Shown here in pieces: positions 3,324 to 54,305 of a DNA stretch of 64,000 nt. The notes under the pieces are model-generated. The model saw only the letters and a program-made list of their open reading frames with translations, made no database searches and was not told where the DNA came from. This DNA comes from Octopus vulgaris (taxonomy: Eukaryota): positions 117,490,001-117,554,000 of the forward strand of contig OX597821.1 of NCBI GenBank assembly GCA_951406725.2, written 5' to 3'. A program made the position numbers and the translations under genes. Positions within the stretch are counted from its first letter, which is position 1, and every line of letters begins with the position of its first letter.

Positions 3324-6300
3324 GTATATGTATGTATATATATATGTATGTATAAATGTATGTATGTATATATGTATATATGTATGTATAAATGTATGCA
3401 TGTATGTATATATGTATGTATATGTATGTATATATATATATATATATATGTATGTATATATATATATATATGTATGTATGTATATATATATATATGTATG
3501 TATGTATATATATATGTATGTATGTATGTATATATGTATGTATATATGTATGTATGTATATATGTATGTATATATGTATGTATGTATGTATATATGTATG
3601 TATGTATATATATATATATATATGTATGTATATATATATATATATGTATATGTATGTATATATATATATACATACATACAGAAGGTGTAGTCAAATGTAT
3701 CCGACTGTGATTTTTGTTTTTTGCCACAAAATAATAATACGTGAGCCAAATCTGCATGGGTATTAGGTGGCTGTGTCCTTCCTGAGTATGTGCAAAAATG
3801 TTCATGTCTGTAGGTTGTGTCATTCACCCGCAGTGACACATTGAGTACAGGTGTGAAGATTGTGCTGTGCAATTATTATTTTTGAGTCAAGATGACCGAG
3901 TGTACTGAGCAAAGATGCTGTATCAAATTCTGCCAAAAACTTGGTGATACGCAAGCCCAGGCCATTGAGAAAATACAGAAGGCTTTTGGAGATGATGCTG
4001 TTGGGAAAACAAAAATAAAGGAGTGGTACAACCGGTTCAAAGATGACCGCACCTCAGTGGACAGTGGCAGACCATTGACTAGTAGAAACGACAAAAATGT
4101 TTGCAAAAGTTCTTGATCGCCTTTGTGGAGTTGTGCGGTGAAAATGACCCAGCAAAGAACTGGCAACTCCACCATGACAACACACCTGCTCATTCCGCTC
4201 TCATCGTCCAAGCATTCTTCGTCAAGCAAAACACAACACTTGTTTGTCTGGCTTCCTATTCCCCAGATTTGGCTCTTAGTGATTTTTGGTTATTCTCAAA
4301 GCTCAAAGGAACACCCAAAGGGAGAAGATTTGAATCAACAGAGGACATTAAGCAAAATTCGATAGCACACCTCTACAGCATCCCAAAAAGTGATTTCCAG
4401 AAATGTTTCCAGCAGTGGCAGGAACGCTGGCAGACTCCCAAAGCGAATACTTTGAAGGAGACTAAATCAAAATGTTTAGTTTTTTCATGTTTCTTGGCCA
4501 AAGGTTGAATACTTTTTGACTACGCCATTTATCAAGTGTTTGTGATGACATTGGACACTTAATTCTAATGAATTTTTTTCCTTAAATTTCATAGCAAAGA
4601 AACCCCGACAGCCACGAGTACCCAAAGCTTCATCAGGATCTCCAAAAGGCAAAAAGGGTAAAGGAATGAAAAAGAAGAAGCCATGGGAATCTGATGAATC
4701 TGATGCTGGTTCCATCAGTAGTTTGTCAGATGTGGAAGCTGCAGATCTTTCAGCTTCAAGAGAACGAATTCCAAGACGTGCTGCCGGTGAGTGCTACTTT
4801 TTTTTTTATTATTGTTCAATATCTTCTCTTTATTTTGTCTTTCCAGATTTCTCTGTTCTCTATTTCATTTTGGTATATTTATTTTCTCTTCATTAAAATT
4901 AAATTCTAAAATAATTTCTTCCTCTTTTTCTCTTTTGTATTTCCTATATTTTTTTCTTAATTTGTTTTTGGGTTTCTGTTTTTAGTTCTTTTCCTTCACC
5001 CCCAATGCACCGTTTCTCTGTTGAGCTTCCTGTTAGTCTTAAAGTCCTTTTAGTCTAATAACTTCCCTTGAACTGCTGCTCATTGGAACTCACTACAATT
5101 GTCTTGTTTTCTTTTGATATATGATATTCACTCCTTTAAGCTTTCTGACAACATATTTTGAGTTTGTAGGCTCCTTTTTCTTTTTTGTAGTCCCTTACAC
5201 AACAATGGCCTCAAGCCTTGTTTGGGACAAAATCCTCAAAACAAACTAAAAAACCCTCAAGATCTAATTACTCTTGTTATAACGAGGTCTCAAGAATTTT
5301 CTGTTGTCATTTCACCCTCTCACTTAAATTTCTTTTCTATCTTGTTTCTCTTTTTCTTTTCTTTCACTTTCTTTTCATCATTTGCTTCTTTATTTCTCTC
5401 CTCTTTTCTCTTCCTCTCTCTTCTCTCTGTTCTTTTCAATGTTCTCTATTTTTAATTGCTCTCTTTCTTAAGACTTCTTGGTCTCTTCTTCATCTATTTC
5501 CTATATTTATACATTATTTACATTTGATTGATATTTGTCCTCAACTTGTTTGTTGTTAACACAACGTTTCGGCTGATATACCCTCCAGCCTTCATCAGGC
5601 GTCTTGGGGAAATTTTGAACCTGGGTTCTCATTCCTAAGGTATTTTTCGATGTTGTTGTTCTTATTATTATTATCATCATCACCATTACCATCATCATCT
5701 GGAATCGACCTCAGAATCTTAGGGTTAGTAGCCCGTGCTCATGACCACTACGCCATAAGAACGCGGGTTACTAACCCCAAGATTCCAGGTACGATATCAA
5801 GCAGTGACCTGAATAATGATAATAAATAATAATAATAATAACATCGAAAAATCCTTAGGAATGAGAACCCTGGTTCGAAATTTCCCCAAGACACCTGATG
5901 AAGGCTGGAGGGTATATCAGCTGAAACACTGTGTTAACAATAAACAAGATGAGGACAAATATCCGTCAAATGTAAATAATGTACATAATTCCTCATCTCT
6001 TAAATATAGAACTGCAATGTTGCTAATTTTGAAATCTTTATTTTATCTTCATCATTCATTTACTTTAGTCTTACAACGCAAAACTGGTAAGGTGATTCAC
6101 TAAAACGATAATTGTTTTTATATTAATGTAGGCACCAAAAAAAAAATGTGCCTGATTAGTATAATGAAGAATTATCTGATTAAAATACTTATCCCCACTG
6201 CTTAGCGTATTTACTCTTGTATTAATTGCATGCTTTTATTTCTTGATTTTCACTGCTACTTACACATGGGGCAAAACTGGAAGGAAAAAGTGTTAGGAAG

Positions 6301-7854: not shown

Positions 7855-7886
<32 letters not shown>

Positions 7887-10800
7887 AAGCATTCAATCCA
7901 GCCATATTGGGCCCTATGCTTCCTGTTTTATGTTCAAACTGGCCAGATCCAACCTCTCACACCTACCCGACAAAGTCATTCTAATAATAGGAGAATCACA
8001 CCATCTTCATCATCATCATCATTTAACGGCTGCTTTCCATACTGGCATGGTTTCGACGGTTTGACTGAGGACTGGCAAGCCAGGAGGCTGCACCAGGCTC
8101 CAATCTGATCTCGCAAGGTTTCTACAGCTTGATGCTCTTCCTAACACCAACCACTCCATATATCGCAGCCATTGCAACGTGACGAATGCACGGTGCCAAG
8201 CGGGCCACTTTTGGTAAGCAGAATAGTAAATGATACGATGCCCGGCACTGGCATCGACCACGCTCAAATGATGCTTTTTACATGCCACGATCATGGGAGC
8301 CATAAACTGTAGTACATAATTGAAGTTCTCTTAGCTATTAAAGATGTTAAGAGATATTTGACATAAACATGCTGCTGCATAAAAAGAAATAGGAAAATAG
8401 ATATAATTAAGAAGAGGGGGAAAATCTCAAAAAGATGTGAAAGTAATCACCATGTTTAGAGGATCATTTCCTGCCAACATTTGCCTGATATTTGATATGA
8501 TCTCTCTTGGATCATAGTTAGGTATTTTGGTACTCCATCCTGTGCCAATGCCATCGGTTCCATTCACCAATATCATTGGAATAATGGGAACATAGTATTC
8601 GGGTTCAATTTTCTGGTTGTCATCATAGAGGTTTTTCAAGAGAGGAAGATCGTCAGGGTGAAATATTCTTTTTCTAAAAGCGTAAAGATGCGATTAAATA
8701 TATATTATTTAATCACACTCTGTCGAGTGGTTGGTGTTGGGAAGGGCATCCAGCTGTAAAAATCCCGCCAAAACAGTTACAGAAGTTTGGTGCAGACATC
8801 TGCCTGGCCAGCTCCTGTCAAACCGTTCCATCCATGCCGGCATTGGAGCGTGGATGTTAAACGATTTTTCAAATTACATTGGACAAAGTAATCTGAATGC
8901 TAAAGGTTTAACAAAGCAGGAACAAAGAAACACACTTGCACAGACACATGTTTGTTTTCACTGTAGAGGCAGGCTAATGAAGTCTCTTACAGATTTAAGA
9001 AAAGGCTCCAGTGGAACCTTTTCTAATTATAATAGTTTTGAAACAATTAATTTTTCAATTATATTGCTCTTTGAACATTGTCATTGTTCCAGTTATAAAA
9101 CAAATATTTTCAATTTCTAATTTAATATATTTAATTTTATGCATTTATTTTCTTTTAAAACAGTGTTTGCTTTTATACACTCACTTTTAGTTTATTCTTT
9201 ATATATGTAAAGACCTTGTTTTAATAATTTCAGAGGATGTTCAAAATAAAGCCAATTGCTCAGAAGCTTCTTATTGATGCTAAATGTCCGTTTTTCCTTA
9301 CTATATCTGTATTATCTATTTGACCATTTGTGTGATGATAGTTTATTGACTGCTAGGGATCATTCTGTAAGGATTCAGTATTCTTTTCTGCCCTGAAATT
9401 TTTGTGGAATGGGCCAGTCATTTAGATTGACTCCAGTATGCAACTGGTACTTAATTTATTGACCCAGAAAGGATGAAAGGCAAAGTTGACCCCAGCAGAA
9501 TTTGAACTCAGAACGTAAAAACATGAAATACAGCTAAGCATTTTGCCCAGCCCAGCATGCTAACATTCCTGCCAGCTTGCCACTTGATATAAGGGATCAG
9601 TATTACATATATGAATGATAAACTGCTGGTTGTTTGCTCTCCACCCCCTTATCAGAGCGGGTATCCATGACTAGGAGGCTGTTTCTCTTGAATTCATAGA
9701 TTTTAGGAGAGTAGAAATGAAAGTGATAATGCTCAGTTCTTTCTCAAAGACGTTATCTCCATAAGTGAAACAAAATGGTTACAGCCAAGATTTGAAAACT
9801 AACTTGTGATCTAGCATTTGACCCCTACAATTAGTATTTCATTAGTTTTCTGGCTCTTTCCTTATTACTTAACAATTTAGCATAAATTTCACCTGGTTGT
9901 TGCGAATAATTTACAGCATTTTTCTGGATAAAAGTTAACAGATTTGATTTATTTAGTGATGCTTATTTCAGACCATGAATGGTTGGGCAACTGGCTCTAA
10001 TTTATCCCACCAACTCATGGAGCAAAGAAATATTGATCAGTTTATTTTCTCTTAGTAGTTATTGTTATTCATTCACTTTACAAGTTTGGATTTTTAGATC
10101 TATTTTAAAAGAGCAAAAAATCTTTGGTAAATGAGAATTAAAAAATAAACTGAATATAGTGTTAACTTGTTGGTATTTAATTCTTTATTCTGTCAAAATG
10201 CAATGTCATTTTTGGGATATTTACTTAGTTTCATTAATCCATGTTGTTATGTAATCTCAGCCCAACTCTGACTGAGCAAAGATTATTGCATGCAGAAAGT
10301 TGTCCAAACAACTCAATGTAATCCATTAGCTGTAAACAGGTCATAGTAACCCACCAACTGTAATTGATAGCTGTAAACAATTCACTGCAATCCACAGAGC
10401 TGTTGTTCTATAGATACATAATATACTCCTATAGTATGAATAGGCCTATACATACTACAGTTCTATATATATAGAACTATAATGTATATAGTTCAGGAGA
10501 GGTATAGTCATTTAAATCAAACTGGATATATTAGTAGCACATCGTGGAGTATACCAAACACCATGCAACCAATACAGTGTGCGCTTTGGACCAGCTGCTA
10601 TGTGTTCAATACTCATAAGGGTTAATTTATTGAAATTGTTATCAATTAATCATTCTTTACCTCTTAGCTTTGATATTTCGATGATGTGATGGCATATTTT
10701 TCAGAATGACATCGTAGGGTAGGTGTTTCAAGGTTAGATATGGCCAGTTTGAACATAAAACAGATGGAATATTTGGGCCAGATATGACCAGTTTGAATGC

Positions 10801-13800
10801 AAGAGGGTTAAATGAATTATATTCAGTCCAAAATTCTATCTGTTTTGTGTTCAAGTTGGCCAGATTTGACCTCTCACACCATACCTACAATGTCATTCTA
10901 TGAGATAATGTATGATTAATCCAAACCCATGTGAATAAATAAGCATCACATTTGACAGAAAAATTTGAATACTAAAGGGCTTTTTGCAGTTTCTTATATT
11001 TTCCTTTCTGATAGATTGTGATTATTTTTTTTTATAAATTCATATATTATGAAATATTTGATTTGTATCTTTTTTTGTCTTTTCTTAAATATAGCTCAAG
11101 CAATTAAATATAATTTTGGTGATGATGAAGATGAAGAAGAATATTATCCCGTACTCCATGAAAACCAGGCAGATGTTCCCCCACCAGCTGATGATCCCCC
11201 ACCAGCTGATGATTGCAATAACATGAATGCTGGGGCAGAAGAAAATGATGTAGATGATGACGACGATGATTTTTTTGCTCCTAAAAAAGAGTAAGTTCAA
11301 AAAGTCATACAAGTCCATTCTTTTTTTTTTTTTTTTTTTTGACGAAATTGTAATTTTAGAATTTGTAAAATTTGAAAAAAGATAAAAATTTTGAGCATTT
11401 AAGAATATATATTCATAATTCACAACATCAACATCAAAAAATCAAATGGAAATAGTAGTTGTGATACTTGTGCCATGGCATGTAAAAAACACCACCTGAA
11501 CGTGGCCGATGCAAGCGCCGCCTTGACTGGCTTCCGTGCTGGTGGCACGTAAAAAGCACCAACCGATCGTGGCCATTGCCAGCCTCGCTTGGCACATAAA
11601 AAGCACCCACTACACTCACGGAGTGGTTGGCGTTAGGAAGGGCATCCAGCTGTAAAAACACTACCAGATTAGACTAGAGCCTGGTGCATTCTCCTAGCTT
11701 CCCAGACCCTGGTCAAACCGTCCAACCCATGCAAGCATGGAAAACGGACGTTTAACGATGATGATGATGAGGATAATGATGATGAATTCATCTTTAATTT
11801 TTTTCAACCTATAATGGTTGGGCCAGATATGGCCAGTTTGAATACAATTAGATAACCCTATGATTTCTTTAAAATTCAATATCTCCAGATACTTTCCAAC
11901 TTGGACAAGTATTTTTATGTGTGTGTGTATGTGTACCCTTGTCTAGACATCACGTGATGGTTGTACTTGAGCATCATCATCATACGAGTGAGGCTGTTTG
12001 TTTCCTTTCCAGCCATCTTTGAAAATCACGTCTCGCTTTGGAAAAAATATATTACCCTGCTTGGATGTTGACGGGGGTTGGTGACAGGAAGAGCATCCAG
12101 CTGTAGAAACCTGCCTGAACAAACTGAGCCATGCAAGCATGGAAAAGTGCACATTGAAATGATGATGAGACTTGTAATCCAGCAGAATAACAATCTCCAT
12201 CTAATCAGTTTGACAATGTACTGTGAAGGTTTCCATATTTGCAGACAGTTTGTCATTCAGCTTAAGTTGTTGAAAAGAATTGCTGTGGAATGTAATGGTG
12301 GACAAAAAATATTCATTTCTACTCTAAGCACAAGGCCTGAAATTTTGGGGAAGGGGCCAGTTGATTAGATTGACCCCAGTACACTACTGGTACTTAATTT
12401 ATTGACCCCGAAAGGATAAAAGGGAAAGTTGACCTCGGTGGAATTTGAACGCAGAACGTAAAGACAGATGAAATTCCTATTTCTTTATTATCCACAAGGG
12501 GCTAAACATAGAGGGGACAATCAAGGACAGACATAGGTATTAAGTCGATTACATCGACCCCAGTGCGTAACTAGTACTTAATTTATTGACGACCCCAAAA
12601 GGATGAAAGGCAAAGTCAACCTTGGCGGAATTTGAACTCAGAATGTAAAGACAGATGAAATACTGCTAAGCATTTTGCCCGGTGCTAACCACTCTGCCAG
12701 CTCAACGCCTTTGTGGACTAAATGCATTGACAAATGTGTGTTTCTATGAGTTTTGGGCTGCATTCAAATATAATGGATTTCAATGAAGAATGAGAAGTAG
12801 ATAAGTACAAATGTAGATTTAGGTGAATTCTCAACACCAAGTGACAGGGTGAGATTTCGTGGTTAGAAAAAGAATATTTCACTTTGACTATAACCATGAA
12901 ATTTATGCTAATATGGGCCTAATAAGCCACCTCAGGACCCACAATGAGTAAAGCTTCTAATCTGGCCAGGGACCTGAAAGATGAGCGTCAGGTGAAAGTC
13001 CCTGATATATTAGTAATTACTTCAATATTGGGAATATTTCCTTTGTCTTTACGTTTTTCCGAGATACCATGTCTCAGGTAGCAGTTGCTTTTACAGTTAA
13101 AGGCCTTTCCAACTCGGCTGTCAAGTGAGGCCTGTTTGTGTTTGTTATTCAGGACGATCTCAGGAAAACACATTTGTTTTAGAGTGTTCCTTTAACTTGT
13201 TTTTGGGTCATTAGACTGGCCATGCTGGGGCACTGCCCTGAAGAATCGTAAGTTGAATGAATTGACCGCAGTACCTATTCTGTCGCTCTTTTGCCAAACT
13301 GCTAAGTTATGGGGGCATAAATACACCAACACCATTTGTCAAGTGGTGACAGGGGACACACACAAAATAAGCTTCTTTCAGTTTCAGTCTACCAATTCCA
13401 TTCACGAGGCTACAGTAGAAGATACCTGTCCAAGGGCTACGCAGTGGGACTGAACCCAGAACCATGTGGTTGGGCAGCAAACTTCTTACCATGCAACCAC
13501 ATCTGCACCATTGGTAAATTTTTACTTTTTGAATAATCCTTGAAACGTTTGTTTCTTTTTCAGTGAAAAGAAGGCCCCTTCTCCTGTGAAGGCAGCAAGC
13601 CCCAAATTTGAGGATGAGGATTCTTCTGAGGATGAAAATGCCGACTTGTTTAGCCGAGTCACTGAACAGACCAAAAAAGCACGAGATGATGCTGTCTTTG
13701 GGATATCAACTACACTTACAAAACCAACAGTTAAAACCTCAATTCCCAAAGAACCCATGAAAGGTGAGTGCTTTTGGCTTTCTTTAAAAATTTCTGATTA

Positions 13801-24100: not shown

Positions 24101-27100
24101 TTGACCAGAGTAATCTGAATGCCAAAGGGGTTAAACTATTGACCAAACATGATTGGTATGTTAAGTCTCACCAAGGGGATGAAATTTTTGCTGACTGCGT
24201 GCAAGTCAGCTGTCATGACGTCTTTAAAAATAAAACAAGCACACTGCATCATATGAAGTGTGGAAAATCTCTAGCAAGTACCCCATTCTCAAAAATGAAG
24301 TAACACAATTCCCATCTCAAAATCTACATCCACTGTAAGGGTCAGAGGATTTGTTTTTTAATTGCCATGTCAAAAACACTCGAGCTGGTGCTATGTAAAA
24401 AGCACCCATGCTGGTGCCACATAAAAAGTATCTGCACTGGTGCCACATAAAAAAAGTTTGGCATTAAACAAAATTTTAATATTTTTACCTTTTGCTTAGT
24501 TTACCTGGATTTACCTGTAGTTAGTCACTTTGAGACAAAAATTATGCAATAGAATTGATTAAGAACCCTTTCTTTAATTATGTTCCAAATATCACATTAT
24601 TATGTTGATAAGTAAAAAAAGTTACAGTTATTTAATGAAACTAGTCTAAATTCATAATTATTTTAGAATTTAACTGAAACTCATGAGGGGTGTATTTTGG
24701 TCAGAAATATAGTAATGAAAGGGTTAAGAAGGGCATGCAGCTGTAGAAACCAAGCCAAAACAGGCAATTTGACAGAGCAATATGAATGCTAAAAAGGTTA
24801 AACTATTGACCAAACATGATTAGTAAGTTAAGTCTCACCAAGGGGATTAAATTTTTGCATGAGGGTAACTTGCTAACCATGTGCAAGTTTTCTGGGGTGC
24901 AGTTCCCTGGCTTGCTAGTTTCTGTCAAACCATCCAACCCATGCCATCGTGGTAAACAGACGTTAAGTGTGGATGATGGTTGTGATGTTGTTGATCATTG
25001 CCCTGGAATTGCATAAAGTAGGCTTCTTTCCCTTGATGTCATTCGTTTAATCATAACTTATGCATTTCAGAGTAAATCAAGCAGAGTAATGTTCTTTGTC
25101 TGTTGGGCCTTTTTTAATCCATTTTGACTTCAGCCCTAAGACTCATTAAAAGCTGGTGATTCAGGTCCCATGTATATAAGCGACTGAAAGCACAACCATT
25201 CCCTCTGAATGGAGACACTGGGTCTGTCACAGGGTTCAAGGCCAGCGATTTTGAAGGGAGAGGGTCAAAGCAATTACATCACCCACCCCTCCTCCTACTC
25301 CCGTACTTGATGGCATTTTATTTTCGAGCGAGGTCATTGCCAGTACCGCCTGACTGGCCCCCATGTCGTTGCACGTAAAAGGGCACCATTCGAGCGTGAT
25401 CGTTACCAGCGTCACCTTACTGGCACCTGTTGCCGGTGGCATGTGTAAAAAGATTCGAGCGAGGTCGTTGCCAGTACCGCCTGACTGGTCCCCGTGCTGG
25501 TGGCATGTAAAAAGCACCCACTACGCTTTTGGAGTGGTTGGCGTTAGGAAGGGCATCGAGCTGTAGAAACTCTGCCAGATCAAGATTGGAGCCTGGTGCA
25601 GCCATCTGGTTCGCCATCCCTCAGTCAAAATCGTCCAAACCAGGATTTGAGCTAAACACATGAAAAGCTAGAAGAAATGCTGCTAAGCATTTGATCCAAT
25701 TCTGCCAGCTTGTTGCCTGCTTGACAAATTTTCTGTGATTTTATATATATATACATTGATAACTTGATTCGTCTTACCCATCTCACTCACTACGAAAATT
25801 TAACCTTTTAGGCTACTTTCAAGCCTTCGCCATAACTTGATTTATCTTTCCTATCTCTCTCTCTACAAAATTTAACCTTAGGCTACCTCAAGCCGTAATC
25901 CCATCTTTTCCCATCTTTCCGCCATTGGCGATGCCCGCAGCAAGTTCTTAAAAATTTATCTTACTATTTTTATTTGTTGTTACTACGTTTATTCATACAT
26001 TGATAACTTGATTCGTCTTACCCATCTCACTCACTACGAAAATTTAACCTTTTAGGCTACTTTCAAGCCTTCGCCATAACTTGATTTATCTTTCCTATCT
26101 CTCTCTCTACGAAATTTAACCTTAGGCTACCTCAAGCCGTAATCCCATCTTTTCCCATCTTTCCGCCATTGGCGATGCCCGCAGAGACTCCGCTAGCCAA
26201 ATAGACTTCATCCTCACCAGACAACGGGATGCAGGGTTGCTCTTGAATACAAAGACCCTCTTGGGTGAAGAATGTATCCCTCAGCATAGACTAATCATCA
26301 GTGACTTTAAGCTTGAGGCCAGAAGGACTCCAAGAAACAAACCAATCCAGAAAAGAAGGATTTGGAGGCTAAAGAACCCTTCGCATGGTCAGAAATTTAG
26401 GGACATACTCATCAAGAAATTTGATGAGAGGGAGGAGGAGCTTCAGACGTCAGACATAGAAGGTAGCTGGGAATTCCTACGGGACAGCTTGTTGAGTGCC
26501 ACAGACCAAGTCTGTGGATGGTGCAAAGTCCCTTCCAGACCTAGAATTACGTGGTGGTGGAATAGTGCAGTAGATAAAGCCATCTGTGAAAAGAGACGGG
26601 CCTGGAAAGCCTGGAAGGATGGGGGCAGCAGGGAACTGTACCAGATAGCCAAAAGGGAGGCTGGGCGGCAGGTATACATTGCCAAAGATGTAGCAGAAAA
26701 GAAGAAGTTTGCCAATGTCCAGCGTCGCGAGGATCAAAGAGCTGAAGTATTTCGGATTGCCAGACAGTGTGTCAGAGAAAATAGCGATGTTATAGGAGAG
26801 AAATGTGTCCGCATGGATGATGGGGCACTTGCTTTTACTACTAGTGAAAAGAAAGAGGCTTGGAGAAGCCATTATGAAAGACTGCTGAATGAGGAGAATG
26901 AATGGGAGGAGGAGAGCCTGCCAAATGTTGACCCAGTAGAGGGGACCAGCTCCCTTGTAGATAAGGCAATTAAGGATATGAAACCAGGCAAAGCCCCTGG
27001 CCTATCAGGAATCACTGCTGAGATGCTTAAAACAGCTGGCTATGTGGGCTATGCCATAGTCACCCGCATTGTAAACCAGGTAGTTCACAATGGAGTCATA

Positions 27101-29211
27101 CCCAATGACTGGTGCAGCAGCACCATAGTCAACTGCTACAAGGGTAAGGGTGATGCTCTAGATAGAAATAACTACAGAGGTATCAAACTGTTGGACCAGG
27201 TGATGAAGGTCTCAGAGAAGGTCATAACCAATCTCATTAGGGAGAGAATTTGTTTAGATGAAATGCAGTTCGGTTTTGTACCAGGTAGAAGCACCACTGA
27301 TGCTATATTCCTGGTCCGACAACTGCAGGAGAAGTACCTAGCTACAGATAAACCCCTCTACATAGCTTTTGTAGACTTGGAGAAAGCCTTTGACAGGGTT
27401 CCCCGTTCCCTTATCTGGTGGTCGATGCGGAAACTGGAGATTGAAGAATGGCTAATAAGGGCTGTACAGGCTCTATACAGAGAGGCTGTCAGCAAGGTTA
27501 GGATTGGCAACGAATATAGTGAAGAATTCCGGGTAGAAGTAGGTGTGCACCAGGGCTCAGCCCTCAGTCCCCTTTTATTCATCATAGTCCTTCAGGCAAT
27601 AACAGAGGAATTCAAAACGGGATGCCCCTGGGAGCTCCTCTATGCCGATGACCTAGCTCTCATAGCAGAATCACTACCGGAACTAGAAGAGAAATTTCGG
27701 GTGTGGAAGCAAGGGTTGGAATCAAAGGGCCTTAGAATAAATGTAGCAAAGACCAAAGTATTAGTAAGCAGCAAGAGGTACTCAGCACACATCCCCTCGG
27801 GTAGGTGGCCCTGCTCAACCTGTAGGAAAGGTACAGGTAGAAACTCCATAAGATGCACCCAATGTAAGTTATGGACACATAAGAGGTGCAGCAACATTAA
27901 AGGGAAATTAACAGATAAGATAGCTTTCATGTGCGGCAGATGCACAGGGACAATAGACACAACAGACACTCAGAAAACAGATTCCATCACACTCCAGGGA
28001 GAGAAACTAGAAGTAGTTGATAGTTTCCGCTACCTGGGAGACCAAGTTAGTAGCGGAGGTGGATGCACAGAGAGTATCACCACTAGAATACGAATAGCCT
28101 GGGCAAAGTTCAGAAAGCTCCTACCCCTACTGGCAACAAAAGGTCTCTCCCTCAGAGCAAAAGGTAGATTGTATGATGCATGTGTGCGAACTGCCATGCT
28201 TCACGGTAATGAAACATGGGCTGTGACTGCAGAAGACATGCGTAGACTTGAAAGAAATGAAGCTAGCATGATCCGCTGGATGTGTAGTGTCAGTGTGCAC
28301 GCAAAACAGAGTGTAAGTATCCTGAGAGAAATGCTGGATATAAGAAGCATCAGATGTGGTGTGCAAGAGCGACGCTTGCGATGGTATGGTCATGTGCTGC
28401 GGATGGATGAAGAGAGATGTGTGAAGAAGTGCCACTCCCAAACAGTTGAAGGTATCAGGGGGAGAGGTAGACCCAGGAAGACATGGGATGAGGTGGTCAA
28501 GCATGACCTCAGAGCATTGGGCCTCACTGAGGCAATGGCGAAGGACCGAGATCTCTGGAGATATGCTGTGACTACAAAGACCCGGGCTGCTTTCTGCAGC
28601 AATTCCACATACCCACTACCCATTCTAAGTACCCCGGATCCCCAAAGTACCCTGGATCCCCAAAGTACCCCGATCCCCAAAGTACCCCGGACCTCGTTGC
28701 CCCCGTGCCGCTGACACGTTAAAATGCTCGAACCGATCGTGACGATGCCAGACCCTCCGGCCCCTGTGCAGGTGGCACGTAAAAGCACCCAATCCACTCA
28801 CGGAGTGGTTGGCGTTAGGAAGGGCATCCAGCCGTAGAAACTCTGCCAGATTCAGACTGGAGCCTGGAGTGGCCCCTGGCTTCCCAGACCCGGTCGAACC
28901 GTCCAACCCGTGCTAGCGCGGAAAGCGGACGTTAAACGATGATGATGATGATGATATATATATATATATATATATATATGAAGGCAGATGTTAAATGATG
29001 ATGATGATTATATCTATCTATATGTATATATTGTTGACTAACAAACGTTTGTTCTTTTTTTTGTTTTCAGGTTCCGCCAAAGCCCGAGGAAGAAGAATTT
29101 GAGGAAGAAGTGCATAAACTCAATGACATACAGGCTCGTACCACAACTGGTCGTTCCCGAGCGCCTGTCAAATATTTTGAGGAGGATGAATCTGAAGAAG
29201 AGTTTTACTAG
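1136..29211 (+). CDS. TOP2: DNA topoisomerase II, 3' part (C-terminal domain), spliced; 5' exons lie upstream of the window
   Basis: Exons 1136-1223, 4595-4786, 11095-11290, 13564-13763, 15279-15404, 16336-16434 and/or 18386-18481, 23126-23223, 29071-29211 join in frame with GT-AG ends. [12 protein letters not shown]...RERIPRRAA and terminal [21 protein letters not shown] resemble the vertebrate TOP2A/B C-terminal domain. Confidence 0.9.
1968..2330 (+). mobile_element. tRNA-derived SINE; other copies ~13200-13510(-), 40960-41130, 44395-44762(-), 47520-47915(-), 59895-60330
   Basis: A-box-like TGGCTGTGTGG, B-box GGTTCAATCCC, body CACCTTGGGCAAGTGTCTTCTACTATAGCC. Confidence 0.8.
2419..2730 (-). 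mobile_element. RTE-tail SINE copy, near-identical to 49157-49412
   Basis: (CAT)n tail then the same conserved tail in reverse. Confidence 0.8.
2731..3676. repeat. ~950-bp compound (TATG)n/(TA)n microsatellite
   Basis: visible; source of the spurious Y/I/H/M/V/C-rich ORFs. Confidence 0.97.
3677..4531 (+). mobile_element. mariner transposon relic, internally deleted and frameshifted
   Basis: [16 protein letters not shown] start, [12 protein letters not shown] and [13 protein letters not shown] motifs; degenerate TIRs GGTGTAGTCAAATGTATCCGAC / GTTGAATACTTTTTGACTACGCC. Confidence 0.85.
4595..4786 (+). CDS. TOP2: TOP2 exon (AKKPRQPR...[12 protein letters not shown]...RERIPRRAA)
   Basis: atag acceptor, gtgagt donor, 192 nt, phase 1/1; resembles TOP2A KKRNPWSDSESD...PRRAA. 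Confidence 0.9.
5508..6013. mobile_element. palindromic element: two head-to-head arms, each tRNA-like head + (AAT)n + hammerhead motif
   Basis: 5508-5755 is the reverse complement of 5756-5985; arms contain CTGATGA...GAAAC. Confidence 0.75.
5559..5602 (-). ncRNA. minimal type I hammerhead ribozyme motif
   Basis: ACGC CUGAUGA A GGCUG-loop-CAGCC GAAAC GUU GUGU; stems I and II pair, palindromic AACGUU stem III. Confidence 0.65.
8005..8300 (-). mobile_element. RTE-tail SINE copy left of the inverted TOP2 exon
   Basis: family motifs in reverse orientation. Confidence 0.75.
8451..8673 (-). pseudogene. TOP2: inverted isolated copy of a TOP2 breakage-reunion-domain exon within a TOP2 intron
   Basis: Minus strand reads [74 protein letters not shown], no stops, bounded by cttttag and gtgatt; P.YY.PIIPM.LVNG..GIGTGWS is a type IIA topoisomerase signature. 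Confidence 0.85.
8715..8865 (+). mobile_element. RTE-tail SINE copy right of the inverted TOP2 exon
   Basis: CACTCTGTCGAGTGGTTGGTGTTGGGAAGGGCATCCAGCTG...GGATGTTAAACGAT. Confidence 0.7.
11095..11290 (+). CDS. TOP2: TOP2 exon ([16 protein letters not shown]...FFAPKK)
   Basis: atag acceptor, gtaagt donor, phase 1/2; acidic CTD sequence. Confidence 0.85.
11470..11785 (+). mobile_element. RTE-tail SINE copy
   Basis: family motifs and (GAT)n tail. Confidence 0.8.
13564..13763 (+). CDS. TOP2: TOP2 exon ([25 protein letters not shown]...KEPMK)
   Basis: tttcag acceptor, gtgagt donor, phase 2/1. Confidence 0.85.
13814..14395. repeat. inverted-repeat element, ~130-bp arms (13814-13946, 14268-14395); further partial copy at ~58105-58210
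   Basis: GTTGCTGTAATTTAGCCCCAGGAGACATCGTCTCCA mirrored; internal direct duplication 13990-14100 vs 14320-14455. Confidence 0.75.
14188..14230 (+). ncRNA. minimal hammerhead ribozyme motif, different family
   Basis: CUGUG CUGAUGA AGGG-AAAUAA-CCCA GAAA UC-GU-GA UA CACAG; 5-bp stem I CUGUG/CACAG. Confidence 0.6.
14535..15150 (+). mobile_element. decayed LINE RT fragment (CR1/Jockey-like)
   Basis: [10 protein letters not shown]...DGVLS...NSGV remnant preceding the QGS motif region; heavily mutated. Confidence 0.45.
15279..15404 (+). CDS. TOP2: TOP2 exon ([15 protein letters not shown]...KTTEKS)
   Basis: tttacag acceptor, gtaaat donor, 126 nt, phase 1/1. Confidence 0.8.
16336..16434 (+). CDS. 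TOP2: TOP2 candidate exon, copy A ([33 protein letters not shown])
   Basis: tttag acceptor, gtactt donor, 99 nt, phase 1/1, no stop. Confidence 0.65.
18386..18481 (+). CDS. TOP2: TOP2 candidate exon, copy B ([32 protein letters not shown])
   Basis: duplicate of 16336-16434; tttag/gtactt, 96 nt, phase 1/1, no stop. Confidence 0.6.
18525..19611. mobile_element. second palindromic tRNA-head/hammerhead element, left arm interrupted by another repeat (~18670-19230)
   Basis: symmetry centre ATGCTCGGGCAT at ~19375-19386; degenerate hammerhead motifs at ~18589-18630 (-) and ~19523-19566 (+). Confidence 0.7.
21872..21915 (+). ncRNA. minimal type I hammerhead ribozyme motif in a single-arm copy (~21800-21970)
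   Basis: ACAC CUGAUGA A GGCUG-loop-CAGCC GAAAC GUU GUGU. Confidence 0.7.
22455..22990 (-). mobile_element. RTE-tail SINE copy with multiple ~58-bp internal repeats
   Basis: repeated GGATGGTGCTTTTTACGTGCCAC units. Confidence 0.8.
23126..23223 (+). CDS. TOP2: TOP2 exon ([33 protein letters not shown]; NLS-like)
   Basis: ttctag acceptor, gtaaga donor, phase 1/0. Confidence 0.85.
23429..24134. mobile_element. nest of piggyBac-like MITEs: two ~230-bp copies inside a third element
   Basis: TTAA-CCCTTT...AAAGGG-TTAA termini; inner copies ~23445-23672 and ~23698-23925; other copies ~22119-22364, 32760-32990. Confidence 0.7.
25320..25640 (+). mobile_element. RTE-tail SINE copy, 3' end truncated
   Basis: family motifs. 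Confidence 0.75.
25751..26184 (+). repeat. direct duplication of a ~190-bp unit (25751-25940, 25995-26184) abutting the LINE
   Basis: near-identical copies ATACATTGATAACTTG...GATGCCCGCAG, period 244 bp. Confidence 0.9.
26186..28714 (+). CDS. RTE ORF2 fragment (RT plus embedded PHD finger), open frame, endonuclease mostly missing
   Basis: uninterrupted frame containing the 825-aa ORF track entry 26237-28714; no initiator ATG at its 5' end. Confidence 0.8.
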   Translation, partial: DSASQIDFILTRQRDAGLLLNTKTLLGEECIPQHRLIISDFKLEARRTPRNKPIQKRRIWRLKNPSHGQKFRDILIKKFDEREEELQTSDIEGSWEFLRDSLLSATDQVCGWCKVPSRPRITWWWNSAVDKAICEKRRAWKAWKDGGSRELYQIAKREAGRQVYIAKDVAEKKKFANVQRREDQRAEVFRIARQCVRENSDVIGEKCVRMDDGALAFTTSEKKEAWRSHYERLLNEENEWEEESLPNVDPVEGTSSLVDKAIKDMKPGKAPGLSGITAEMLKTAGYVGYAIVTRIVNQVVHNGVIPNDWCSSTIVNCYKGKGDALDRNNYRGIKLLDQVMKVSEKVITNLIRERICLDEMQFGFVPGRSTTDAIFLVRQLQEKYLATDKPLYIAFVDLEKAFDRVPRSLIWWSMRKLEIEEWLIRAVQALYREAVSKVRIGNEYSEEFRVEVGVHQGSALSPLLFIIVLQAITEEFKTGCPWELLYADDLALIAESLPELEEKFRVWKQGLESKGLRINVAKTKVLVSSKRYSAHIPSGRWPCSTCRKGTGRNSIRCTQCKLWTHKRCSNIKGKLTDKIAFMCGRCTGTIDTTDTQKTDSITLQGEKLEVVDSFRYLGDQVSSGGGCTESITTRIRIAWAKFRKLLPLLATKGLSLRAKGRLYDACVRTAMLHGNETWAVTAEDMRRLERNEASMIRWMCSVSVHAKQSVSILREMLDIRSIRCGVQERRLRWYGHVLRMDEERCVKKCHSQTVEGIRGRGRPRKTWDEVVKHDLRALGLTEAMAKDRDLWRYAVTTKTRAAFCSNSTYPLPILSTPDPQSTLDPQSTPIPKVPRTSLPPCR
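28626..28693 (+). repeat. ~18-bp minisatellite (AAGTACCCCGGATCCCCA) x ~4 in the LINE 3' region
   Basis: visible tandem units. Confidence 0.8.
29071..29211 (+). CDS. TOP2: TOP2 terminal coding exon ([10 protein letters not shown]...[21 protein letters not shown])
   Basis: strong acceptor ttgttttcag, phase 0, TAG at 29209-29211; resembles the conserved TOP2 C-terminal motif. Confidence 0.9.
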   Translation, partial: VPPKPEEEEFEEEVHKLNDIQARTTTGRSRAPVKYFEEDESEEEFY

Positions 29212-34416: not shown

Positions 34417-36780
34417 CAGTGTTTCCCAACCTTTTTTCCCGGCGCCCCACTTTTTCATAGCAAAAGTTTTTACGCCCCACCTTTTCCCATGTCCACTCAC
34501 ATTTACAAGTTCATGTGGGCCTACTTACAATTGAAAAAAAATCAAAAATTAAAAAATTGTATTCAAAATACAAAAAAATAGTTTGAGAATTGAAACAACA
34601 GGCACTGAAAGTGCATAAAACCCAATAAATCGATAAAATTATTACGATTTGTCATGTTTTTAAAAAAATGTCAATTTATAAAGAATAAAGAAACACGTTT
34701 TTTCAGTTCAATTATTTGACGGTCAGCTCGACTAATTTAGGGAGAACCCTGTGCCTGATGCATGCAGCACAAGTTTTTAATTTGAGGAGACAACTTTGTT
34801 AATTTCAGTCGTAAATCGCCACGTTTTGTAATCTCAAGCCGGTTTCTCTTGGCTTCGAGCAAATTATCAACTGCACTAAAACCACATTCGACCAAATAAG
34901 ACGAAGGGAAAGGAATCAGTAGCTCTCTCGCTGATGTAGAAATTTTAGGATATTTTCTTTCAACCTCGTCATATAGCCACATCTTTGTACCTTTCAACTT
35001 AAACAAAGTCTTCACTGATTCATCATGTTGTAATTCTGATAACTCTTCTTGGTATTGGATTGTAGCATCAGAAACGTTAATCAGAAGCGGTTGAGTTAAC
35101 CAAGAAGGAAAATTCATTGCCTTTAAATCACAAAATCTGTCATTGAAATCCTTTATCAAGATATTTAAATGATCAATAATTACAATGCCAGCATCATTCG
35201 TTATTTCACATTTACTCAACCAGTAAAGTTCACTGAAATTTCTTTTGGAAAATTTCTTTTTCCATAATTCGAGAGCTGTAATAAATCCAAAAATCTTTGC
35301 TTTTGCATCAATAAGTGTCATGTTTGCACCTTGAAGTTGTTTATTCAAGTTTCCAAGTTTCTCAAATATGTCTGTCAAATAACTGACAAATGCTTTTCCA
35401 TCCGTTGTTGACAGCAATTTCATTTCACATTTATCACTAAGAAAGTCGTTAATCTGATCAAATAATTCCATGAACCTCTTTAAGCAGTTTCCACTTGATA
35501 GCCATCTTACTTCTGTATGAAGCAATAATCGAACATGTTCGGCACTTTGATTTATACAAAACTGCTTAAAAAGACGTTCAGATTTAGAATTTCTTTTAAT
35601 GCTGTTGACACACTTGATCACACTTTGAAGAATCTTGTTAAGAACAGGGGACAATTTCTTGGCAACCAAGTTTTCTCGGTGTATTACACAATGGACAGTC
35701 AACATGTTTGGATTTTCATCCTTCATCATTTTTAAGCATCCTGTATTCTTGCCCATCATGGCAGGTGCACCGTCTGCCACACATGCCAGTAAGTTTTCCT
35801 TTGGTATTTTGTTTGCATCCAAATAATGTTTGATTTTGATGTAAATATCATTTGCAGTTGTGGTGGTTTCAAACGATTCGCAGAACAGCATCTCTTCCTG
35901 AAACTCCTCGTGGTCAATATACCTCACATAAGTCAATAACAGAGCCTCACTGTCCCGGATTGTGGATTCGTCCATTTGTAATGAAAACTTACGCAATTTT
36001 AATTTCTCAATGAGCTGGCTTTCAACATCTTGCCCCATTTCATCTATTCTGTTCGAGACAGTGTTATTACTGAGTGGCATAGTCCTGATATCTCCATCAT
36101 CTTTTTGTAATACAGTTTTTAAGAATATTGAGATAGCAGGTTTAATCAGTTGCTCTCCAATAGTGTGATTCTTTCCATGTTTTGCTATAAGCAAGGAGAT
36201 TTCGTAGCTGGCTTCAAGGGCACGAGTATGAGGCGCTTGTTTTGAAGTGAGTTTTGTTCGGTTTTTAAATTTTTCTTTCAATGATTTGAAGTATTCCAAA
36301 TCTAAATTAGAATTATTAGGATGTCTTACCTTTAAGTGCGCTTCCAGCCTACCTGCCTTCATTGACTCATTGCTCATCGTCTGATTACATAATAAGCAAA
36401 ACGGTTTACGCTCATCATGCTCATCAGGAATGAATCCAAACTTCAAAAACTCCACCGCGTATTGACGAGTCTTCTTCTTGTTTGGTTTGCTCATTTTCAA
36501 TAGGGCTAACAAAAGACTAATTGAGGCAAACTAATTGAGGCAATTGATTGGCTTATCTGAATAGTAAGTTTATTGCTCAGTGCGGGATCTTCTTTGTCTC
36601 GCTGGGGTGCGAGAGTTTCCGATGTGGAGGCTTCAAAGGAAAGACGGAATCTAAGGTTGTGCCCGCGATGACCGCTCGTCATGTACAAATATTTTCACAG
36701 CCCACGTCTATGCCCCGCGCCCCACCTGAATTTTCTCAGGCCCCACCAGTGGGGCGTACGCCCCACCTTGGGAATCACTG
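34417..36780 (-). mobile_element. full-length hAT (Buster/Charlie-type) DNA transposon
   Basis: TIRs CAGTGTTTCCCAA / CAGTGATTCCCAA; perfect 8-bp TSD CTGTAGGG (34409-34416, 36781-36788) with central TA; single transposase ORF. Confidence 0.95.
34737..36494 (-). CDS. Buster-family hAT transposase (ZBED8/SCAND3-like), 585 aa from ATG
   Basis: BED finger CLLC...HLKVRH; MDEST, ADGAPAM, HCVIHRE, HTEVRW, SYLVECGFS motifs; C-terminal QAQGS; no stops or frameshifts. Confidence 0.93.
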   Translation of the reverse strand: MSKPNKKKTRQYAVEFLKFGFIPDEHDERKPFCLLCNQTMSNESMKAGRLEAHLKVRHPNNSNLDLEYFKSLKEKFKNRTKLTSKQAPHTRALEASYEISLLIAKHGKNHTIGEQLIKPAISIFLKTVLQKDDGDIRTMPLSNNTVSNRIDEMGQDVESQLIEKLKLRKFSLQMDESTIRDSEALLLTYVRYIDHEEFQEEMLFCESFETTTTANDIYIKIKHYLDANKIPKENLLACVADGAPAMMGKNTGCLKMMKDENPNMLTVHCVIHRENLVAKKLSPVLNKILQSVIKCVNSIKRNSKSERLFKQFCINQSAEHVRLLLHTEVRWLSSGNCLKRFMELFDQINDFLSDKCEMKLLSTTDGKAFVSYLTDIFEKLGNLNKQLQGANMTLIDAKAKIFGFITALELWKKKFSKRNFSELYWLSKCEITNDAGIVIIDHLNILIKDFNDRFCDLKAMNFPSWLTQPLLINVSDATIQYQEELSELQHDESVKTLFKLKGTKMWLYDEVERKYPKISTSARELLIPFPSSYLVECGFSAVDNLLEAKRNRLEITKRGDLRLKLTKLSPQIKNLCCMHQAQGSP

Positions 36781-45032: not shown

Positions 45033-46390
45033 TGTGTGTATGTTTTGTGTGCTTGTATATGTGATTGTGTGTGGTTATGTCTAACTGTATTGATTGTGTA
45101 CATGTGTGTGACTGTGTGTGATTGTGTGTGCATGTATGTATGTGATGTGTATCTATGTGTGTGTGTGTGTGTCTGTCTGTCTGTGTAGATTGTGTATGTG
45201 TAATTGTATGTATGTCTTGTGTTGCATGTTTATGTGATTGTGTGTGGGTATGTCTAACTGTTTGTGTATGTATGTAATGTGTGTGTGTGTGTGTGCGCGT
45301 GTGAGTGTCTGTGTGTGTACATGAAGTATTTTGTCAGCAATAATTCTTACCTTCCTTGCAGTGGCAGATGTAAGTTCCATTGCTTCCTTGAATACAAGAA
45401 CCACCATGGTAACAAATACACATGGGCAATTTCCGGGGCACTTCAAATGCTAATGAGGGTTGTAAGAAAGGAAATACAGAAGATAAGCTAAATCTTGAGA
45501 TGTCATGAGAAAGATCAACAGCTGAAGAACTTTTAATATCACATTTATTTATTTACTGCAGGACACCTACCCCTGCTCCTCCACAACTCTAATCTCTCAT
45601 CCACTGGCTCAAAGCCACTAAACCCCTCACTCCTACTCCCTCTCCCACTTTGTCTTGCTAGTTACTTAGCAACCATGTTGGTGCTGGTGCCACATAAAAA
45701 GCACAGGTGCTGGTGCCACATAAGAAAAGCACAGGTGCCACGTAAAAAGTACTGGAGCTGTTGCCATGTAAAAAGCAGCCAATACACTCTGTAAAGTGGT
45801 TGGTGTTAGGAAAGGCATCTGGTTGTAGAAACTCTGCCAAAACAGACAATGGAGCCTGGTACTCATTTTATTGACCCTGGAAGGGATGAAATTCAAAGTT
45901 GACCTTGGCAGAGTTTGAACTCAGAATGTAAAACGGACAAAATTCAGTAAAGAATTTTACCCAGCATGCTAATGATTCTGCCATCTCATTGCCTTTTTAA
46001 AAAAATGATAACATTAATTTCTAACTAAAGCACAAGTCCACATATTTAGAGGTGAGCATATAATTATATACTCTATTAGCTGGCTGTTCACAATTCTATC
46101 CCCTCAACCATTACATTTCAACTATTAGTATGTTCATTAATGTTACCATATATATATACACACACATATATATATATATATATATTTATTATATAGAAGG
46201 AGCTTCTACAGGACTAGAACTGTTTCATTCAAGAGAAATCATCAGGAAGCTCAAGGAGCTTCCTGATTATTTCTCTTGAATGAAACAGTTCTAGTCCTGT
46301 AGAAGCTCCTTCTATATAATAAATTAATTTTACTCTGCTATGTATTGAGTACCTTATTTACTGTGGTTAACCCCGAATCAACCCGGGACC

Positions 46391-46430
<40 letters not shown>

Positions 46431-46590
46431 GGACTCTTCCATAATATGGATACCAGTTATGAAACACCAGCAATGGGCCTGACTGTGATCTCACTTGACT
46501 TGACAGGTCTTCTCAAGCATGGTGTATTGTCAAAGGTCTTGATCACTTGTCACTGCCCGCCTGAGGCCTAAAGTTCAAAGGGTGCTCTTT

Positions 46591-46641
<51 letters not shown>

Positions 46642-46779
46642 CATATATATTGAGGTAAAAAGTCGTCAGAATTTTGAAAAAAATCTTTTTATTTCTTCAT
46701 TATGTGCTAATTAATGATAATGAAGAAATAAAAAGTTTTTTTTCTGAAAATTCAATTTCTGTGCAACACACCTAGCACA

Positions 46780-46841
<62 letters not shown>

Positions 46842-48374
46842 GTATATATATATATGTATATATAAGTATATTATATATATATATATATAAGTATATTTAT
46901 GTATATGTGTATATATATATATATCTTTATATATATATGTATATATAAATATATATATATATATATATGTATATATAAGTATATATAAGTATATTTATGT
47001 ATATGTGTATATATCATCATCATCGTTTAACGTCCGTTCTCCATGCTAGCATGGGTTGATATGTATATATATGGGTTATGAGTAGTAATGGTGTTAGTGA
47101 GACCCAAAGGTGTCAGGTAATGCTAATAAGTGCTATAGACAGACCATAGTTAAGTTCCGGGTTCGGTGATTATGCGAATAAGGGGTCCAACTTAGGTCAT
47201 ATATCAGCGTGTGTATATAACATTTTTTTTTTCCGTAATGAGATAACAAACTAAGGCTGTGTAGATTTTAGAATATTTATAAATATTTATAAATGTTCTA
47301 AAATCTACACAGCCTTGGTTTATTATCTCATTATGGAAAAAAAAAATGTTATACCATCATCATCATCGTTTAACGTACGCTTTCCATGCTAGCATGGGTT
47401 GGACGATTTTGACTGTGGGCTAGCGAGCCAAATGGCTGCACCAGGCTCCAATCTTGATCTGGCAGAGTTTCTACAGCTGGATGCCCTTCCTAACGCCATT
47501 AAATATCTTTTATTGTTTGTCTTTTACTAGATTCAGTCATTAGACTGTGGCCATGCTGGGGCACCACCTTGAATGATTTTATTTCAATGAATTGAGCCTA
47601 GTACTTACATTTTTAAAAACCTGGCCCTTATTCTATTAGCCTCTGTTATGGAGGATATATAAACAAACCAACACCAGTTGTCAAGTGGTGGTGAAGGACA
47701 AACACAGACACAAAGACATGAACACACGCACACACACACACACACAAACACACAAAGGGCTTCTTCCAGATTCCATCTACCAAATGCAACGAGAAGGCTT
47801 TAGTTGGCCTGAGGGTAGAGTAGAAGATGCAATCCAGAGGTGCCACACAGTGGGACTGAACCCGGAACCGTGAAGTTGGGGAGTAAAATTGTTACCATAC
47901 ATCTACTTCTGCACACCTATATAACTACTGGTAATTTACCTGATTAATTTCAGGGGCCATATTAATACAAATGTTTTCCTATATGGTTCCAATTAATCCA
48001 TATCACTAATTATGCATCATTTAATACTAATGATTATAAATATTAATTATTTTTTAATATTAATTTATTCAATATTAATTATAATTAAAAAATTAGCTTA
48101 ATCACAAAAATGCTATTCTTACCTGCATCACACATTGTAGTGGACCCTTCAATAAACTTGGAGCCATCAGGACATGCGCACCGATAACCCTTTGGAATCA
48201 GGAGGCAGAGGTGGCTGCATGTCTTTTCTGAAGCACATTCGCTTGTGACTACACAAAACAAACACAAAATAACAAACGTCTGTATGTAACTAGAAGCTGA
48301 TTTATATATAAATAAATGTTGGTTGGTTGAGTGATTCCTTCTGACTTGCATTACATTGTATAGAAAGAAGAACA

Positions 48375-48437
<63 letters not shown>

Positions 48438-48614
48438 GAGAGGGAGAGAGTCAGCATGAGGAGTTCAAGATGAGCATGCATGCTAGGCTTGGTGACAGGC
48501 AATGAATAAAAAAACCCACTATGCATACATACACAGTGAAAGAGAGAAATTCAGGGAAGATGGAGGAGAGAGAGGAAGAGAGAATGGAAGGGAGAGAACA
48601 GGGAAGGAGGGAGG

Positions 48615-48681
<67 letters not shown>

Positions 48682-51600: not shown

Positions 51601-53264
51601 ACAAAGACAAGTTTCATGGCAAGACACTATAAATGCTACATGGCCAAAATGTTGTCACTTGTCATCACGTCTGTGAGACACAACATCCAAAGATCATATT
51701 TCATCACCTCGTTCCACATCTTCCTGGGTCTACTGCTTCTTCTGGTTCCCTGCACAGTTAGTGATTGGCACTTCTTTATGCAGCTGCCCTCATTCATAAG
51801 CATCACATGTCCATACCAGTGCACTCTCCTCTGTTGCACACTACATTTGGTGCCTCCTATATATCTGGTGCCTCTTATACATCTGGTACCTCTTGTACAT
51901 CTGGTGCCACTTGTACATCTGGTGCCTCCTATATATCTGGTGCCTCTTATACATCTGGTACCTCTTGTACATCTGGTGCCACTTGTACATCTGGTGCCTC
52001 TTGTACATCTGGTGCCTCTTGTACATCTGGTGCCTCTTATACATCTGGTGCCTCTTCTACCCAGTTTTTCTCCTGAGACACACTCTGTCGTACATGCACA
52101 CTGACATTGCACATCCAGTGAAACACACCAGCTTCATTTCTTTCAAGCTTTGCCGGCCCATGCAGTCACAACCCATGTTTCACAGACATGTAGCATGGCT
52201 GGTCACACATAAGCACCATAAAATCTGCCTTTCACTCTGCAGGAGAGGCCCTTCATTACCAGCAAAGGTAGAAGCTCCCTGGACTTTGCCCAGCCGAGTC
52301 TTGTTCTGGCAGCTTCATTCTCAGAGCATCCCCTTCACCTGATGACTGTCCAATCGCAATCGTCTTTATGTGCAACAATAAATATTTCAGTCAAATGTTC
52401 ATGGATTTTGCTTCCAATTATTCACACAACCAATAAAATACATGTTTGTTCACTAACTCAACAATTACAACCCAACCACCAATGGTAACATAAGGGTCAC
52501 AACCAACCCCACCATCTGTAAAAGCAAAATAAAACATGTTTGCTATAACTGATCAACATGATCCATATGTCACTAAGCCAATGACAAAACATTCTGATGA
52601 AATATGTGAAATCATTGATATATGAAAAAAAAGAAAGAGAAAATCTTTATGTTTGCAAATATTCCAGTCAAAATTAGTGTTGTCTTTGAGGTTGGTGTTT
52701 CGTTATGGCTTCAAAACAGGGCAGGTGAAAATACCTGAAGAATATAATGAGTGATCAATAATGTGTCTCTTGAATGAACATGCCTACCCAGTCTGTGAGT
52801 TAACGACAATAGCATAAGGTCTACGAAGTTCTGTTTTGATTAAAGTGTATCTGTATCTTCCATCTTTAGCCGCCACAGATATTGTTTTCTTTTTGGAGTC
52901 GGTCCAGTAAACATTCCTGTTATAAAAAGAGGAAAATATGAAATTAACATTATTGCTGCTGAAGTTATTGAGAATTTATCAGGAATGATAAAAGTCAAAG
53001 AAAAGAATAAATGGCACCTGCTTATCAAATTAAAATAAGATACGACCATTTAGTTAAGAAGATTGTTTTTGTGTGTATTCCTGGCTTCTATTCCTCAATC
53101 ATGGCATCAGATGGACTGCTGCTTTGAGAATGGAATTTTGTTGATAGACACTTGGTGAAAGGTCTTCATGCACAAATACACACATATGTACACACACACA
53201 CACACATAGTGGGACTGAACTTGGAACTGTGTGATTGAGAAGCAAGGATCTTACCACACAACCA

Positions 53265-53321
<57 letters not shown>

Positions 53322-53887: not shown

Positions 53888-53935
<48 letters not shown>

Positions 53936-53954
53936 CATGTTTATATATATATAT

Positions 53955-53993
<39 letters not shown>

Positions 53994-54010
53994 CATGTTT
54001 ATATATATAT

Positions 54011-54067
<57 letters not shown>

Positions 54068-54272: not shown

Positions 54273-54305
<33 letters not shown>

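Follow-up and report, generated by a model that had tools for sequence, protein, structure and literature searches.

The TOP2 locus and the host intron

The window analyzed here is a 64,000-nt stretch of the Octopus vulgaris genome assembly, and most of its first half is occupied by the gene for topoisomerase II (TOP2). Two full-length proteins, aligned collinearly to the plus strand, cover the entire gene, which is 75.6 kb long and extends from ~46 kb before the start of the window to position 29205; the closest named full-length protein was the predicted TOP2 of Octopus bimaculoides, 95% identical over the query. The only minus-strand match to full-length TOP2 proteins fell within a 709-bp insert, which lies backwards at 8002-8710 in a TOP2 intron and is flanked by 8-bp direct repeats (Table 1). 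A first-pass annotation, made from the letters of the window, had reported a TOP2 catalytic-core segment on the minus strand, antisense between two plus-strand TOP2 exons, and our mapping agrees with it on both points.

The same annotation expected the cognate sense exon upstream of the window. The search located it there, as a 232-nt exon at G000:C8:117475308-117475539 (+), 22 kb upstream in the intact gene, to which the copy is ~98% identical; the source of the whole duplicated stretch is G000:C8:117475316-117475987 (+), likewise outside the window. Genome-wide DNA and protein searches for the exon returned two matches, the sense exon and its antisense copy, which rules out further copies elsewhere in the genome. 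When the window and 100 kb upstream of it were compared with themselves, a single inverted pair stood far above the rest, spanning 676 columns at 97.6% identity with its arms 22 kb apart.

Table 1. Coordinates in the window of the insert, its flanks and the neighboring features
Feature	Position	Strand	Remarks
TOP2 exon upstream of the host intron	4595..4786	+	
Older short repeat bounded by terminal inverted repeats, left part; formed the target	7886..8001	+	Right part at 8873-8911
Left 8-bp direct repeat, AATCACAC	7994..8001	+	Likely target-site duplication; ends exactly at the insert start
Copied intronic repeat with (GAT)n tail, 3' end of the insert	8002..8300	-	82% identity of its last 164 nt with the 3' terminus of the window's LINE
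Copied first 449 nt of the intron after the source exon, unspliced	8002..8450	-	11 substitutions and 1 indel relative to the source
Copy of the TOP2 source exon, 9th base to donor	8451..8674	-	3 substitutions: S>P, R>Q and one silent third position
15-nt match to the end of the TOP2 exon that precedes the source exon	8675..8689	-	Positions -17 to -3 from the donor
Filler, 5' end of the insert	8690..8710		Folds back on the right flank (arms 8689-8700/8706-8717)
Right copy of the 8-bp direct repeat	8711..8718	+	
Neighboring older repeat, 5'-truncated, also of the (GAT)n-tailed family	8716..8866	+	Best other copy 89%, with 40 of 2672 candidates scored
TOP2 exon downstream of the host intron	11095..11290	+	
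LINE with reverse-transcriptase ORF (PF00078) and (GAT)n tail, last TOP2 intron, sense	26126..28960	+	Shows the family owning the tail

Anatomy of the insert

In sense orientation, the insert opens with the fold-back filler and the 15-nt piece of the preceding exon's end; then come the source exon without its first 8 nt and, finally, 449 nt of the intron downstream of it, which end at the (GAT)n tail shared with the LINE. The duplicated stretch proper (8002-8674) differs from its source by 14 substitutions and 1 indel (~98% identity); a fifteenth mismatch, at 8675, was assigned to the junction and not to the copied stretch. The intron-like flank is thus 449 nt long and not ~120 nt as first described, nor is the segment a whole exon with AG/GT ends, as had been proposed. 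The donor was indeed copied, but the copy begins at the 9th base of the 232-nt exon and so lacks its first 8 nt along with the genuine acceptor; the AG at its edge is a product of the junction and not an acceptor. The 15-nt exon piece, the 8-bp direct repeats, the LINE-type tail and the fold-back filler had been overlooked in the first-pass annotation.

Translation of the minus strand at 8451-8672 gave 74 residues without a stop, the first base being 8672, whereas starting at 8673 yields stops; these residues match PF00521 (E 1e-23) and residues 817-888 of human TOP2A. The segment had been presented as stop-free, which holds for the frame starting at 8672, but the openness carries no information: in simulations with 3 random substitutions in the 224 exon bases the frame was still open in 87-89% of the cases. 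Because only 3 changes are found in 224 bases and the chance of staying open is this high, the open frame of the copy is uninformative on function, and selection for it was rejected.

The 15-nt piece has its source at G000:C8:117474903-117474917, outside the window, and a 388-nt intron lies between it and the source exon. It matches at 14 of 15 positions in the assembly, and at 15 of 15 when the letter at 8681 is taken from sequencing runs X1 and X3; a score of 14/15 was reached in none of 79 other 2-kb control tiles and in 1 of 2000 shuffles. Beyond this piece, the insert is truncated at its 5' end: it stops 17 nt into the preceding exon and continues into the 21-nt filler, which has no match in the preceding exon and was ruled out as a further piece of it. 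Both exons are represented in the copy, with the 388-nt intron between them missing and the next intron retained. Measured against the spliced mRNA, whose exon-exon junction was defined from the loose ends of RNA contigs, the copy junction lacks 10 nt (2 + 8); measured against the DNA it lacks 398 nt. The loss of the intron by splicing is not proven by these letters, as the junction is imprecise and a 398-nt jump at the DNA level would give an identical sequence.

An 8-bp repeat of this kind arose in 0.5-0.8% of random junction pairs in a simulation, and the word was absent beside the ends of the source; its right copy overlaps one arm of the fold-back. No poly(A) was found at the 3' end of the insert (8002), which falls exactly in the (GAT)n tail common to the reverse transcriptase-encoding LINE; under a strict motif there are only 6 such sense tails in the gene. 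The LINE itself, which may belong to the RTE clade, has an open reverse-transcriptase frame of 862 aa; a 190-bp direct repeat (25751-25940/25995-26184, 99%) lies on its 5' side. Recently active LINE families in O. vulgaris, RTE included, are described in two reports (PMC13282606, PMC9115989).

The target of the insertion was an older repeat pair, composed of the element at 7886-8001/8873-8911, MITE-like in our own reading, and the truncated tailed repeat next to it. Two other ways of accounting for the repeats around the insert were discarded. The tail end does not come from another resident repeat, as the differences there include one CpG whose decay affected a different strand in each arm, the others being divided between the arms. 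Arrival of 8716-8866 together with the insert, by twin priming, was rejected since no close source was found in 164 kb (best 78%) or among the 40 of 2672 genome candidates scored (best 89%).

Presence of the insert in sequencing runs

Eight of 24 runs were examined, six of DNA type (X1, X2, X3, X5, X6 and X7) and two of RNA type (X10 and X14); the RNA type of the latter is our guess, as no run is recorded as RNA, although their contigs are spliced. The right junction was spanned by contigs in two of the six DNA-type runs, X1 and X3, which carry two species labels and come from different studies. In X1 (organism A, possibly the assembly's own sample) the junction contig covers 8625-8722 at a depth of 53, and in X3 (organism B) it covers 8645-8753 at a depth of 41. 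In X3 the flanks have a depth of 42-46 and the duplicated part one of 81; about 1% of the flanking bases in this run differ from the assembly, and 3 differences fall in the junction contig. These data would agree with an insertion that predates the divergence of these lineages.

In X2, X5, X6 and X7 a contig over the junction was not seen, the contigs continuing directly into the flank of the sense copy, a pattern from which absence cannot be read, given that it comes from contigs; these four runs may represent animals lacking the insert, or the junction may have been pruned during assembly. The depth over the duplicated part, ~1.2-2.2x that of the flanks in X2, X5 and X6, does not decide on presence. 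Contig support covers the right junction, the left one lying in repeats. Misassembly, raised as an alternative by the first-pass annotation, is unlikely because the right junction is present in contigs of two runs from different studies.

A minor observation concerns the labels of the runs: over 8345-8425, X7 is labelled organism A yet has a one-base deletion at 8421 like X3 and X5 (organisms B and C) and unlike X1 and X2, so the species labels may mix lineages.

Origin of the insert

An RNA origin of the insert is, in our judgement, quite likely. As a whole we regard the insert as probably a LINE-made retrocopy of partly spliced TOP2 pre-mRNA, lying backwards in its own gene and likely inert today. 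A LINE protein would have taken a (GAT)n-tailed repeat, lying in sense orientation in a TOP2 intron, for its own 3' end and bound to it; priming at a nick at 8001 would then have been followed by copying upstream through unspliced intron and exon, across the already spliced junction with a loss of 10 nt, and 17 nt into the preceding exon. The 5' end may have been joined via the short fold-back filler, with 8 bp of the target being duplicated, and the copy would have drifted neutrally since its insertion. The stop at -17 would be in line with an exon-junction complex near -20 halting the enzyme. The landing site would be explained if the RNA had not yet left the vicinity of its gene, as was probably the case; this insertion in cis is our preferred but unproven step, because partly spliced RNA by nature sits near its gene, and the case is a single one, picked from a large scan.

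Target-primed reverse transcription is recognized by the combination of a tail-anchored 3' end, a target-site duplication, a filler-joined 5' truncation and the absence of an intron. Both the target-site duplication and the action of LINEs in trans on host RNA are described in PMC5110952. Counting against a retrocopy, random insertion would land in the same gene with odds of ~1 in 37,000 (75.6 kb of 2.8 Gb), and none of the 15 substitutions is A>G, so there is no trace of an edited template; the imprecise junction, the lack of poly(A) and the overlap of the right 8-bp repeat with a fold-back arm weaken it further. The retrocopy reading rests on the occupied allele, an empty site not being among the sequences seen.

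The exon part of the duplication has 3 of 224 bases changed, with two amino-acid changes and the copy alone free to drift, against 11 of 449 in the intron part, where both arms are free; at the level of these letters the divergence of the arms fits neutral drift. The insert is probably inert, a conclusion based on contigs, which drop minority forms.

If the proposed origin is true, the insert preserves an event in which a LINE enzyme, starting at an internal repeat tail, copied host pre-mRNA while it was being spliced and placed the copy in the same gene. It would also suggest local retroposition of nascent RNA, given that random landing in the same gene is expected about once in 37,000 events.

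Template switching at the DNA level (FoSTeS/MMBIR, or end-joining with templated inserts), with no RNA involved and a neutral outcome, appears unlikely to us as the origin. In this scenario a broken end, having entered the (GAT)n tract 22 kb upstream, would have been extended over 673 nt and would then have switched across 398 nt to the end of the preceding exon, before folding back and being rejoined. The nearness of source and target then needs no extra assumption, and the imprecise junction and the missing editing trace also speak for it. Moreover, the pieces come from nearby DNA, two of them from 22-23 kb upstream plus the fold-back, several short templated pieces at one junction being typical of the FoSTeS/MMBIR class, and local duplications are present in the TOP2 gene, such as a 95% direct repeat at 17140-17693/19636-20194. 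An inverted exon duplication in the CHM gene was assigned to FoSTeS/MMBIR in PMC8756506. However, the internal jump must begin and end as close as 2 and 8 nt to the two splice sites, the other end of the copy must lie at the LINE tail, and an 8-bp target repeat, seen by chance at the low frequency given above, is needed as well. Microhomology at the switches amounted to 0-2 nt at the internal jump and up to 3 nt at the tail end.

Hardly credible at all is an assembly artefact, for which the left junction in repeats and the four of six DNA-type runs without a junction contig could speak, against the right junction spanned in X1 and X3, the depth pattern of X3 and arms separated by 14 substitutions and 1 indel; or else a trans-spliced antisense exon as in mod(mdg4), also raised at first for the case of a missing sense exon, which we rejected since a sense exon is present and the mRNA contigs contain that very exon, and which is unneeded because TOP2 is complete and all its exon blocks are collinear on the plus strand.

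Predicted pairing with the source exon and possible effect on the pre-mRNA

It had been suggested that the copy could pair with its own exon over ~220 nt or more. The pairing potential is in fact larger, 673 nt at ~98% identity, and includes, within the same transcript, a 224-nt complement of the exon with 3 differences. Among 234 inverted pairs in the TOP2 gene, 199 of them of at least 100 nt, the pair formed by the insert and its source is the strongest and the only one touching an exon, with a computed duplex energy of -1257 kcal/mol (exon part -414) against -485 to -547 kcal/mol for the next three pairs. The arms enclose nine exon blocks, and the 22-kb distance would shrink to ~5 kb if the upstream introns are spliced first. 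The arm in the exon is kept after splicing, and 62 of the 81 paired exon adenosines would recode if edited.

We then consider whether the insert, whatever its origin, acts on the pre-mRNA, pairing with its source exon and leading to ADAR editing, to partial skipping of the exon (232 nt, a frameshift) or to back-splicing of the nine exon blocks. The rank and energy of the duplex, the persistence of the exon arm, the shortened distance and the share of recoding adenosines all favor such an action, as does a junction found under two species labels. Editing in octopus is mostly intronic and in 3' UTRs, which would agree with it, and circRNA levels are low, according to PMC9699675; introns have been largely ignored in studies of cephalopod editing, as stated in PMC8891338.

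Against it stand the two RNA-type contigs, of 4379 nt (X10) and 5499 nt (X14) and from different studies, in both of which the exon is included and normally joined at both ends. Exon and copy differ at 3 positions in these contigs, equal to the differences between the genomic sense exon and the copy, so that no extra letter differences were seen. Editing or skipping of the source exon at the majority level was thus found in neither contig, and the roles first put forward for the copy, as an editing-complementary sequence, a driver of skipping or back-splicing or a source of small RNA, gained no positive evidence; minority forms are dropped by contigs, and a skipped form would not map on the stretch used. 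The contigs cover the exon, none extending over the intron part or the junction. Besides, no compensatory changes were seen in the exon pairing, all 3 differences being one-sided, a weak indication given so few changes, and the divergence of the arms fits neutral drift; the acceptor lies outside the paired region, and the 199 long inverted pairs may compete for the repeat part. Weighing both sides, we find an action on the pre-mRNA distinctly improbable, and in the samples examined the predicted pairing would affect few of the transcripts at most, short of a majority. Should the insert be common, little effect would be expected because skipping 232 nt shifts the frame in an essential gene.

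A bolder proposal, to which we give little credence, would generalize this picture: in octopus, a LINE reverse transcriptase would grab half-spliced nascent pre-mRNA by intronic repeat tails and write it back in cis, backwards inserts then being a fast route to ADAR clusters in coding exons. Here the TOP2 catalytic-core exon would pair with its copy, with a fraction of the transcripts edited or destabilized.

The search of the literature gave no figures relating editing to arm distance. TOP2 had no match in the supplement text of PMC8382921, or in 2 of the 3 supplement files of PMC9699675. The insert is a natural test of whether a long near-perfect intronic complement several kb away suffices for editing of a coding exon, an open question in cephalopods, and if animals with and without it exist, the control is built in. 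If the duplex has no effect, the insert is a harmless scar, and a 224-nt exon complement is tolerable in an essential gene.

For mapping of reads, position 8482 deserves attention: this is where one of the 3 exon differences was placed, with A in the copy and G in the sense exon, so that reads of the sense exon aligned to the copy would be miscalled as A-to-G edited.

Comparison with described systems

The nearest described case is the inverted duplication of CHM exon 12 in choroideremia (PMC8756506), in which an inverted copy of exon and intron also lies downstream in the same gene and a pre-mRNA hairpin is predicted. The CHM copy, according to the same paper, is 1752 bp long, has both splice sites and a 274-nt loop, and goes with exon skipping; the octopus insert lacks the acceptor, its distance from the source is 22 kb, and no skipping was seen in the two contigs.

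PMC5110952 and PMC5470649 describe LINE retrocopies, namely partially processed retrogenes and pseudogenes (known from PMC5470649) and class 1 TSIPs, which share with the insert a target-site duplication, 5' truncation, a host RNA template and the loss of one intron with another one kept. They differ from it, in the same sources, in having poly(A) where the insert has an embedded (GAT)n tail, in the junction, 10 nt short in our case, and in location: they lie at distant sites, whereas the insert is 22 kb from its source in the same gene. Lacking poly(A), the insert is not a class 1 TSIP as defined. RNA-templated repair of double-strand breaks with whole intron deletions (PMC12065846) and class 2 TSIPs (PMC5110952) resemble it in that a gene's own spliced transcript is written into its own locus; there, the outcome is a precise homologous replacement or lacks a target duplication, while the insert is ectopic, inverted and flanked by 8-bp repeats. 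In a literature search made mostly in papers outside subscription, no report appeared of a partly spliced retrocopy lying backwards in its own gene.

With regard to function, the known intronic editing-complementary sequences, such as that of the GRIA2 Q/R site, are short, imperfect and conserved, and usually lie within a few kb of their target. The insert is like them an intronic complement of a coding exon in the same transcript; unlike them it is long, near-perfect and young, with no editing at the majority level in the two contigs.

Other features of the window

The host gene has further local features. An older direct duplication (16076-16481/18118-18528, 85%) lies, together with the 95% pair mentioned above, in a TOP2 intron other than the host intron. 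At 9194-9277 (+) the sequence resembles the last 19 residues of a predicted O. bimaculoides TOP2 model (P0003) at 79% identity, with AG before it and AATAAA at 9245; this is possibly an alternative last exon, giving a TOP2 without the C-terminal domain, or else an error in the gene model.

Beyond TOP2, a 597-aa open frame at 34740-36530 (-) had no Pfam match and looks like a DNA-transposon protein. Scattered cysteine-rich and YWTD-like exon frames at ~45300-62700 (-) lie tail to tail with TOP2 and presumably belong to a large LDL-receptor-related gene.
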